A DNA stretch of 64,000 bases from NCBI RefSeq assembly GCF_017348835.2, contig NZ_CP071375.1. The stretch is one strand, 5' to 3'. Positions 49,501 through 52,500 of the stretch are shown piece after piece (the stretch's first letter is position 1; every line of letters begins with the position of its first letter). Position numbers: made by a program. This DNA comes from Escherichia coli. Lineage in GTDB: Bacteria; Pseudomonadota; Gammaproteobacteria; Enterobacterales; Enterobacteriaceae.

Positions 49501-52500
49501 TTCTGGGGCGTGAGCCGGATATATCCGGGAGTGCCGCAGAGATAGCGCAGCGGGTGGCGGAATGGGAAGAGGAAATACAGTCATCCGGCGAGGATGTTCA
49601 GGTTGGGGATACGGTGATCCGGGAGCGGGAAACCGCGGCTCATGATGTTCGTGAGGATACATCCGGTGCGTTAACGCGCATCAGAGTTCTGACCTGCCTC
49701 CATCTCTGTGGCATTGATGGTGAAACAGGGGAATCCGTTGAGATTGCGGATGTTGGTCGGGTGATTCTGATTATGTCCTCAGATGCAAAAACACACGTTG
49801 ATGGCGGAATGGCTGTTTATGCGTGATTTTCAGAATGCCTTTGATGCTGCCCTTGCCGGGGTGGACAGCACGATTGTTGAAGTGATGGGGCTCTGTGCGC
49901 AGTTCACCTCGGGGGCACAGTGTGGCAGCGAAGTTCAGGGGGTTTTTGACGATCCGGAGTCGCTGGGGTTTGCCGGTGGCGGGGTCCGTATTGAAGGAAG
50001 CAGCCCGTCATTATTTGTGCGGACGGATACGGTTCGTGCCGTGCGGCGTGGTGACACGCTGACCATTAATGGTGAGATATTCTGGGTGGATCGTGTTTCT
50101 CCGGATGACGGGGGCAGCTGTTATCTCTGGCTCAACCGTGGTCAACCACCCGCCGTTAACCGGCGACGATAAACGCAGGGTGAATTATGGCGATAAAAGG
50201 GCTTGATCAGACGATTGAAAATCTGAGCCGGGTTCGTAAAAACGCCATTCCGGCGGCTTCAGCAATGGCCATTAACCGCGTGGCCACAACGGCGATTAAT
50301 CAGTCTTCGTCACAGGTTGCCCGGGAAACCAGGGTGAACCGGAAACTGGTAAAGGAACGGTCCAGACTGAAACGGGCCACGGTCAGAAATCCGAATGCCA
50401 GAATTATCGTTAACCGCGGTGATCTCCCGGTGATTAAGCTGGGGATCAGGATGCCGGGGCGTCGTCCGGACAGCATACTCAAAGCCGGTCAGCATCGTTA
50501 TCAGCGGGCATTTATTCAGCGATTAAAAAATGGTCGCTGGCATGTCATGCAGCGTGTGGCCGGGAAAAACCGTTACCCCATTGATGTGGTGAAAATCCCG
50601 ATGGCGGCCCCACTGAAACAGGCGTTTGATGAAAACGTTGACCGTATCCGGCGTGAACGCCTGCCCGGAGAACTGGCATATGCGCTGAAACAACAACTGA
50701 GGATTGCGATAAAACGATGAAACATACTGATATCCGTGCGGCAGTGCTGGATGCACTGGAGCTGCATGAACACGGGGCGACGCTGTTTGATGGTCGCCCC
50801 GTTGTTTTTGACGAAGAGGATTTTCCGGCCGTCGCGGTTTATCTGACGGATGCAGAGTATACCGGTGAAGAGCTGGATGCAGATACCTGGCGGGCCACAC
50901 TGCATATTGAGGTGTTTTTACCAGCACAGGTACCGGATTCGGAGCTGGATTCGTGGATGGAAAGCCGGATTTATCCGGCGATGACTGCGATCCCGGCACT
51001 GGCAGACCTGATTACGACGATGGTTACGCAGGGCTATGAGTATCGTCGTGATGACGATATGGCGTTATGGAGTTCTGCGGATCTGACTTATTCCATTACA
51101 TACGAGATGTGAGGACGATATGTCAACACCAAATCCCCTTGAGCCGGTAAAAGGTGCCGGTACCACCCTGTGGGTTTATAACGGTCAGGGTGACGCCTAT
51201 GCAAACCCGTTGTCAGACGATGACTGGCTGCGACTGGCTAAGGTGAAGGATCTGACGCCGGGCGAGATGACGGCAGAACCCTACGATGATAACTACCTGG
51301 ATGATGAAGACGCGGACTGGACCGCGACCGGGCAGGGGCAGAAGTCTGCAGGAGATACCAGTTTTACGCTGGCCTGGAAACCGGGAGAAGAAGGTCAGAA
51401 AGGGCTTATAGGCTGGTTTGAAAGCGGGGATGTGCGGGCCTATAAAATCCGTTTTCCGAACGGCACGGTGGATGTGTTTCGTGGCTGGGTCAGCAGTATC
51501 GGTAAGGCCGTGACGGCGAAAGAAGTGATCACCCGCACGGTGAAAGTGACCAACGTGGGCAAACCTTCTGTAGCGGAAGAACGCAGCAAAATTACGCCGG
51601 TCACTGCGATTAAGGTGACGCCGACATCCGGTACGGTGGCAAAAGGGAAAACAACCACCCTGACGGTTTCTTTTGAGCCGGAAAGTGCAACCGACAAGAC
51701 GTTCAGAGTGGTTTCCGCCGATCCGTCGAAAGCCACCATTAGTGTGAAAGATATGACAATTACGGTAAACGGCGTGGCGACAGGTAAGGTGCAGATCCCT
51801 GTGGTGAGCGGAAATGGTCAGTTCGCCGCAGTGGCTGAAGTCACCGTTACTGAAGCGGGCGCTGCAGGGTAAACGGAGGTAATACATGTTTCTGAAAACA
51901 GAACAATTTGAATATAACGGTGTGTCTGTCACGCTTTCCGAATTGTCTGCGCTGCAGCGTATTGAGCATCTTGCCCTCCTGAAACGGCGGGCAGAAGAGG
52001 CGGAAGCCAGCGGCAACCTGCAGGTAAGCGTGGAAGATCTCGTCAGAACCGGCGCGTTTCTGGTGGCGATGTCCCTGTGGCATAACCATCCGCAGAAAAC
52101 GGCATCACCGTCAATGAATGAGGCTGTGATGCAGATCGAACAGGAAGTGCTCACCACCTGGCCTGCGGATGCCATTGCCCGGGCGGAAGATGTGGTGTTG
52201 CGTCTGTCCGGGATGAGCGGGGCTGTTCATGCGGATACTGACAGCACCGAAGTGGCGAAATATAACGCGCTGACTGATGATGATTTTTCTGCGGGAAAGT
52301 CTTCGACGGCGAGCTGAATTTTGCCCTCAGACTGGCGCGTGAGATGGGGAGGCCTGACTGGCGCGCCATGCTTGCCGGGATGACATCCACCGAATATGCC
52401 GACTGGCGACATTTTTACCGTACGCATTATTTTCACGATACCCAACTGGATATGCATTTTTCCGGGCTGACGTACGCCGTACTCAGCCTGTTTTTTTGCG

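Follow-up and report, generated by a model that had tools for sequence, protein, structure and literature searches.

Minus-one slippage on heptamers of the form N NNA AAG is known from E. coli dnaX (A AAA AAG) and from IS3-family elements, where it proceeds via weak pairing of tRNA-Lys with AAG. The sites of dnaX and the IS3 family are helped by strong stimulators, namely an SD-like element on the 5' side, a hairpin or pseudoknot on the 3' side, or both, and show high shift rates; slippage at such N NNA AAG sites is also treated in PMC5009743. The system closest to the one described here is the gene pair G and T of phage lambda, in which the heptamer G GGA AAG is an experimentally established -1 shift site (PMC3296357 Table 1; PMC7618472). 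Approximately 96% of the lambda ribosomes keep the zero frame and about 4% slip by -1 at GGGAAAG to produce gpGT, and this rate depends on the mnm5s2U34 modification in tRNA-Lys, a single species of which serves the AAA as well as the AAG codons (PMC3296357; PMC7618472). According to the reviews, lambda makes T only in the form of gpGT (PMC5009743, PMC3296357). The tape measure protein is bound by gpG and gpGT alike, through the G part, and the major tail protein by the T domain; the virion itself contains neither gpG nor gpGT (PMC5009743). The two products are needed at a gpG:gpGT ratio of about 30:1, the chaperone frameshift site is widely conserved, and no stimulatory signal is needed (PMC5009743). 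That gpGT is made in a small, fixed proportion to gpG of about 1:30, and that tail assembly requires gpGT, has been established for lambda only (PMC5009743, PMC3296357). Our statements on lambda are drawn from reviews and from Maynard et al. 2012; the original work on the G/GT frameshift (Levin, Hendrix & Casjens 1993; Xu, Hendrix & Duda 2004, 2013, 2014) is quoted as it is cited in PMC5009743 and PMC7618472, and for the shift site itself PMC5009743 cites Levin et al. 1993.

The stretch of E. coli DNA analysed in this work (64,000 nucleotides of contig NZ_CP071375.1, referred to as the window) contains a tail module with the gene order Z-U-V-G-T-H-M-L-K-I-J-lom. This is the order of lambda, with G and T lying between V and H, and homologues of Z, U, L, K, I, J and Lom complete the lambda-type module. 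An earlier note, made by reading the same DNA, had proposed that a conserved programmed -1 frameshift site of the lambda G/GT type is located at the end of G. We are nearly certain that this is correct, i.e. that the site is the G/GT programmed -1 ribosomal frameshift site of a lambda-family E. coli prophage, orthologous to that of lambda. The features on which the comparison is based are the following.

51120..51872, + strand: gene of the major tail tube protein (lambda V homologue, with a C-terminal Ig-like domain), directly 5' of G
51886..52317, + strand: gene G, coding for the tail assembly chaperone gpG (143 aa, PF06894), the zero-frame product
52284..52317, + strand: G/T overlap, the sole stretch open in the zero frame of G as well as in the -1 frame of T
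52293-52299, + strand: slippery heptamer G GGA AAG, predicted -1 shift site, in X XXY YYZ phase in G
52299..52757, + strand: T segment in the -1 frame, 152 codons, C-terminal part of the predicted GT fusion
52738..55317, + strand: gene of the tape measure protein (lambda H homologue), whose start overlaps the end of T

The assignment of these genes is well founded on domain matches. The G open reading frame, which is preceded by a strong Shine-Dalgarno sequence (GGAGG), matches the Pfam family of the lambda tail assembly chaperone G (PF06894) with E = 3e-50 and a score above gathering, its product is 67% identical to lambda gpG, and in identical loci RefSeq names it 'phage tail assembly chaperone G'. 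The T segment matches PF06223 (Phage_tail_T, minor tail protein T; E = 2e-13) and is 73% identical to lambda T, in an alignment whose first residue is the one decoded directly after the slip, at a point 15 codons ahead of the ATG from which T is usually annotated. Of the two flanking genes, V matches PF16461 (Phage_TTP_12, E = 6e-69) and PF02368 (Big_2, E = 8e-19), and H matches PF06791 (TMP_2, E = 1e-67) and PF09718 (Tape_meas_lam_C, E = 2e-20).

The heptamer GGGAAAG is present at 52293-52299 as the earlier note had stated, and it is in phase within G: in the open reading frame 51886-52317 base 52293 falls on a third codon position, and the zero-frame codons are GCG GGA AAG. The stop codon of G (TGA) occupies 52315-52317, leaving a gap of 15 nt between heptamer and stop; the distance of 16 nt given in the earlier note is the same spacing counted from the last G of the heptamer. 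On the 5' side the -1 frame is closed by a TGA at 52281-52283, and from 52284 it is open until the TGA at 52755-52757. The claim that the -1 frame leads from the heptamer into the T open reading frame was borne out, since the T frame extends over 52284-52757 with an offset of 2 (= -1). A stop codon in the -1 frame between heptamer and T, which the earlier note had named as the observation that would speak against the site, was looked for and none was found. After a slip the reading would be GGG AAA GTC TTC GAC ..., continuing for 152 more codons through the ATG-started 'T' open reading frame 52344-52757. The predicted GT fusion is a protein of 290 aa, encoded by 51886..52299 joined to 52299..52757, with base 52299 read twice.

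All parts of the lambda mechanism are thus present here in identical form, and we infer from this that the mechanism operates at this locus as well. Most ribosomes would decode GGA (Gly) and AAG (Lys) and terminate five codons later to give the 143-aa gpG. A few percent of them (about 4% in lambda) would slip back by one base, with the tRNA-Gly and tRNA-Lys bound to GGA-AAG re-pairing with GGG-AAA. The slip would be favoured by the weak pairing with AAG of the single E. coli tRNA-Lys, the anticodon of which is mnm5s2UUU. Ribosomes that have slipped would read GTC TTC GAC ..., run past the G stop and extend the chain by the T domain of 152 residues, yielding the 290-aa gpGT. By analogy with lambda, many molecules of gpG together with a few of gpGT would coat the tape measure protein H, the T domain would recruit the major tail protein V, and both gpG and gpGT would be gone from the finished tail. 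The shift itself, its rate and the roles of the products at the present locus are in this way modelled on lambda.

A fusion protein of the same kind could be imagined to arise from transcriptional rather than ribosomal slippage, by stuttering of RNA polymerase on the G/A run. Productive transcriptional slippage needs far longer homopolymers, of about 7 or more, and the runs found here are only G3 and A3 (A4 in the phi80-type relatives). Moreover, what is conserved is the X XXY YYZ phase, a property relevant only to tRNA re-pairing, and the rate in lambda responds to the modification of tRNA-Lys (PMC3296357). Although homopolymer runs can give the -1 product by either mechanism (PMC5009743), we attach practically no probability to transcriptional slippage at this site, and consider the shift a ribosomal one.

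The mere presence of the heptamer has little weight. On both strands of the window the string GGGAAAG occurs 11 times, compared with 8.5 +/- 3.2 times in shuffled sequences, i.e. it is not enriched, therefore the significance of the site had to rest on its phase, place and conservation. Strict slippery heptamers in phase with the reading frame were found at 15 of the 5774 codon positions of the late genes. From this the chance of encountering any strict heptamer in the nine usable positions of the overlap is approximately 2.3%, and that of encountering one of the X XXA AAG type approximately 0.3%. Among the in-phase heptamers only that of G is followed by an open -1 frame long enough for a whole domain; it extends over 152 codons, compared with 69 in the next longest case.

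One of the other in-phase heptamers has the same sequence: a second G GGA AAG lies inside H at 53784-53790, where the -1 frame closes after 13 codons. We considered it as a second shift site and rejected it, as it is absent from lambda and was kept in only 12 of 45 related loci. It served as a negative control, being not conserved, unlike the site in G. If the heptamer alone were sufficient for shifting at a rate of a few percent, a minor part of the H chains would end prematurely at 53784-53790. The lack of enrichment and the existence of this in-phase copy, itself due to chance, are the two facts that could be quoted in favour of the G heptamer being a chance occurrence without a role. They are outweighed by the low figure calculated above for the overlap, by the phase and spacing, by the identity with the proven lambda site and by the conservation of the site and of its synonymous positions, which is described below. 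The comparative data effectively refute the chance explanation, to which we would assign a vanishingly small likelihood; a programmed site remains the reading followed here.

It is instructive to compare the locus with lambda in more detail. The earlier note's likening of the site to lambda G-T was confirmed: the two phages share the heptamer G GGA AAG, in the same phase and 15 nt from the G stop, G and T are orthologous, and the pair occupies the same position between V and H. The two loci are also alike in having no obvious stimulatory structure. In the DNA alignment near-identity starts at TTTCTGCGGGAAAGT and extends for approximately 90 nt, whereas the part of G coding for the C-terminus just upstream has diverged. 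This C-terminal linker of G, 5' of the site, differs by indels as well, and gpG is 143 aa long here but 140 aa long in lambda. The C-terminal region of T is 8 residues longer than in lambda T. A further difference is that the -1 frame opens 9 nt before the heptamer in the window, whereas it opens 39 nt before it in lambda.

More distant relatives, the phi80 / N15-type phages phi80, LLS, mEp237 and HK225, have the same gene pair at the same position and with the same 15-nt spacing to the stop as the window. Their heptamer is G GAA AAG, which falls outside the strict X XXY YYZ rule, whereas that of the window is G GGA AAG. The N-terminus of T (…LAREFGRPDWRAMLAGM…) is conserved between these phages and the present locus. 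In the LLS record the fusion is annotated as a joined CDS, with a 'minus-one programmed translational frameshift site' at G GAA AAG.

The conservation of the site, which the earlier note had asserted, was assessed in 83 tblastn-anchored loci (80 IMG/VR contigs, lambda, one E. coli chromosome and the window). The assertion held: 82 of the 83 loci had an in-phase GGGAAAG 15 nt before the G stop and T in the -1 frame. In the single exception (IMGVR_UViG_2526164664_000012, about 1860-1880; L003 in our numbering) a one-nucleotide deletion just 5' of the heptamer shortens a run of T5 to T4. This locus had at first appeared to lack an in-phase site through loss of the heptamer, an interpretation that we discarded, since the heptamer is intact and it is the upstream deletion which changes the phase. 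The deletion puts G into the +1 frame, makes it 17 codons longer and prevents a -1 slip from reaching T; it could be a real mutation that inactivates the site or else a sequencing error in a homopolymer. Addition of the four distant loci (phi80, LLS, mEp237 and HK225, with G GAA AAG) raises the number of loci with a heptamer at the homologous position to 87.

Synonymous positions were analysed in a codon alignment of 61 distinct G..T sequences, 56 of which are close relatives, so that the conservation statistics lean largely on five deep lineages. Of the degenerate G codons, 122 of 128 (95%) vary in their third position. None of the three third positions of GCG, GGA and AAG in the heptamer varies among the 61 sequences. 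The extraction of the codon alignment was anchored on the heptamer, but the heptamer was found independently of this anchor in the 83-locus and distant-phage comparisons, therefore the invariance of these synonymous positions is no product of circular reasoning. In a sliding profile, synonymous invariance rises to two sharp peaks. The first covers the slip site and about 20 codons beyond; the second lies at the T/H overlap and is explained by the ribosome-binding site and start codon of H. Judged from these alignments, the site is conserved beyond the demand of protein coding.

In current annotations T is treated as a gene with its own start, at the following codon.

52344..52346, + strand: ATG from which a separate 'T' of 137 aa is annotated in RefSeq/PGAP and in phage submissions

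The possibility that T is an ordinary separate gene started from this ATG, and that the heptamer is irrelevant, has to be considered because an ATG-started open reading frame of 137 aa does exist, 'phage tail assembly protein T' is annotated in every examined record of this sequence type, and the 137-aa T protein is on record on about 1000 contigs. The sequence around the ATG points in the other direction. The SD duplex predicted for ATG 52344 has an energy of -2.3 kcal/mol, a value that 66% of the ATG triplets of the window equal or surpass, compared with -10.8 kcal/mol for G, -11.6 kcal/mol for H and -9.5 kcal/mol for M. In phi80, LLS, mEp237 and HK225 there is no Met codon at this position but TTC (Phe), and these phages retain both their heptamer and an open -1 frame. 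Between the heptamer and ATG 52344 lie 15 codons whose protein sequence (VFDGELNFALRLARE) is conserved with lambda. The near-absence of an SD, the lack of conservation of the ATG and the conservation of the T peptide upstream of it together argue that T is made by frameshifting and not by separate initiation. A separate T would also be at variance with lambda, where T arises only as gpGT (PMC5009743, PMC3296357). We therefore consider a separately initiated T very improbable. By these sequence features T appears to have no translation start of its own, and ATG 52344 is probably just an internal Met codon of GT, the product of the proposed frameshift.

The first peak of the synonymous profile extends into the region 3' of the heptamer, where the following stretch stands out.

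52300..52378, + strand: modest excess of nucleotide and synonymous-site conservation, a peak of synonymous constraint; its role is a candidate only

A hairpin is predicted at 52333-52368, with a possible outer helix formed by 52306-52314 and 52370-52378. Columns with a single codon were found at 7 of 14 positions in the interval 144-165 of the fusion and at 6 of 52 elsewhere (Fisher p = 0.004), the test being confined to residues conserved in all 61 sequences, which are phylogenetically not independent. One of the seven fixed codons overlaps the G stop; the others (TTT146, CTG150, GCG151, GAG153, GAC158 and GCC161) are not explained by coding and lie in or beside the hairpin. Part of the 3' synonymous signal can be attributed to the G stop codon and to dual coding.

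Folding gave less support to a structure. The fold of 52300-52400 as a single sequence had z = -1.8, and 9 of 200 shuffled sequences folded as well. When a consensus fold was calculated with 6 and then with 13 junction sequences, 92% of the cells were paired, most of the pairs were invariant, and the covariation term was +0.2. Because of the weak fold, the near-invariant pairs and the lack of real covariation we did not accept a downstream stimulatory structure as an element of the site. With only five deep lineages represented, the 3' conservation stays a lead rather than a finding. We think it unlikely that the first 45-70 nt or so past the heptamer (52300-52378) carry a conserved RNA element tuning the G:GT ratio across lambda, phi80 and N15-type phages; such an element, if present, could be the hairpin 52333-52368, possibly enclosed by a helix that would start 6 nt past the slip site. 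For the lambda shift, Levin et al. reportedly observed a modest effect of the downstream sequence, without a simple structure. The site differs from those of dnaX and the IS3 family: unlike at the latter, the predicted downstream fold is weak, and no SD-like stimulator of the kind known from dnaX was detected 5' of the heptamer (duplex +0.5 kcal/mol).

The 2.5 kb around the site are 100% identical to prophages of E. coli O103:H2 12009, of O45:H2 and of other strains, and a related tail locus was detected in 3736 of 5426 complete E. coli genomes. The closest record is that of E. coli PE164 (NZ_CP114128), with 99.8% identity over 25 kb. No record identical to the whole window was identified, and none of the complete E. 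coli genomes searched was identical over the part tested. Relative to NZ_CP027388 the window is a mosaic, in which 40285-64000 is 99.1% identical and 1-40284 matches in patches of 82-97%. We considered taking the annotation of NZ_CP027388 for the whole window and abandoned this, as the two sequences are collinear only from about 40285 on.

The late genes of the prophage are full length, including those of TerL, G, T, H and V, with the exception of M. In this tail gene (55314-55643) a G to A change at 55549 converts the Trp79 codon TGG to the amber codon TAG, which shortens the product from 109 to 78 aa. Intact copies of M are present in NZ_CP027388 and PE164, which are 99-100% identical relatives, and also in lambda. 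Judging by this lesion, the tail module is probably defective by itself. The early region contains two 100% identical copies of a 1310-bp IS3-family element (19302-20611 and 28033-29342) in inverted orientation, 7421 nt apart; with this layout the pair could permit an inversion or behave as a composite element.

It is possible that the site, although competent in sequence, is a relic, i.e. that the prophage is defective and the frameshift has no current function in this host. The amber codon in M is consistent with this, as are the two inverted IS3 copies interrupting the early region and the fact that the closest relatives show additional damage, for example a frameshift in the integrase or terminase. 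On the other side, TerL, G, T, H and V are full length in the window, and many other genomes share the G-T region with 100% identity, thus any inactivation must be very recent. The amber mutation in M could be suppressed, or complemented by other lambdoid prophages; complementation is possible because the number of matching tail loci per matching genome has a median of 2 and reaches 8. Lesions located elsewhere leave the identity of the site unchanged. We regard a relic as a possibility of some weight but lean against it, and with either state of the prophage the heptamer is read here as the G/GT shift site.

Biologically the site is nothing new: it is the already known lambda G/GT site in a lambdoid E. 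coli prophage, and thousands of E. coli genomes possess it. Its importance lies mainly in annotation. T is listed as a separate protein of 137 aa, without a slippage join, by RefSeq/PGAP and in a recent phage submission (NZ_CP027388, NZ_CP114128 and PV340545). In a collection of 15 billion proteins the 143-aa G and the 137-aa T are each found on about 1000 contigs, and the exact 290-aa GT fusion has no record. The GT fusion is systematically missing from annotation, and the missing record reflects annotation practice, not data. In the relatives PGAP annotates the programmed -1 frameshift of IS3 together with its pseudoknot and omits the G-T frameshift. As a consequence, the true GT protein would be missed in the modelling of tail assembly, in proteomics and in the scoring of prophage completeness of EHEC-type E. 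coli.

Two additional gene groups of the prophage deserve mention. Three phage-borne tRNA genes are clustered at 35490-35739, with the anticodon CAT and with Arg-TCG and Arg-TCT. The CAT tRNA was classified as Met by ARAGORN, and the equivalent gene in relatives as Ile by PGAP. The cluster contains no tRNA-Lys or tRNA-Gly able to affect decoding of the slippery site. Between the tail genes I and J, on the - strand, lies sodC (57862-58386), which codes for a Cu/Zn superoxide dismutase (PF00080, E = 4e-32) and is a typical lambdoid 'moron'.
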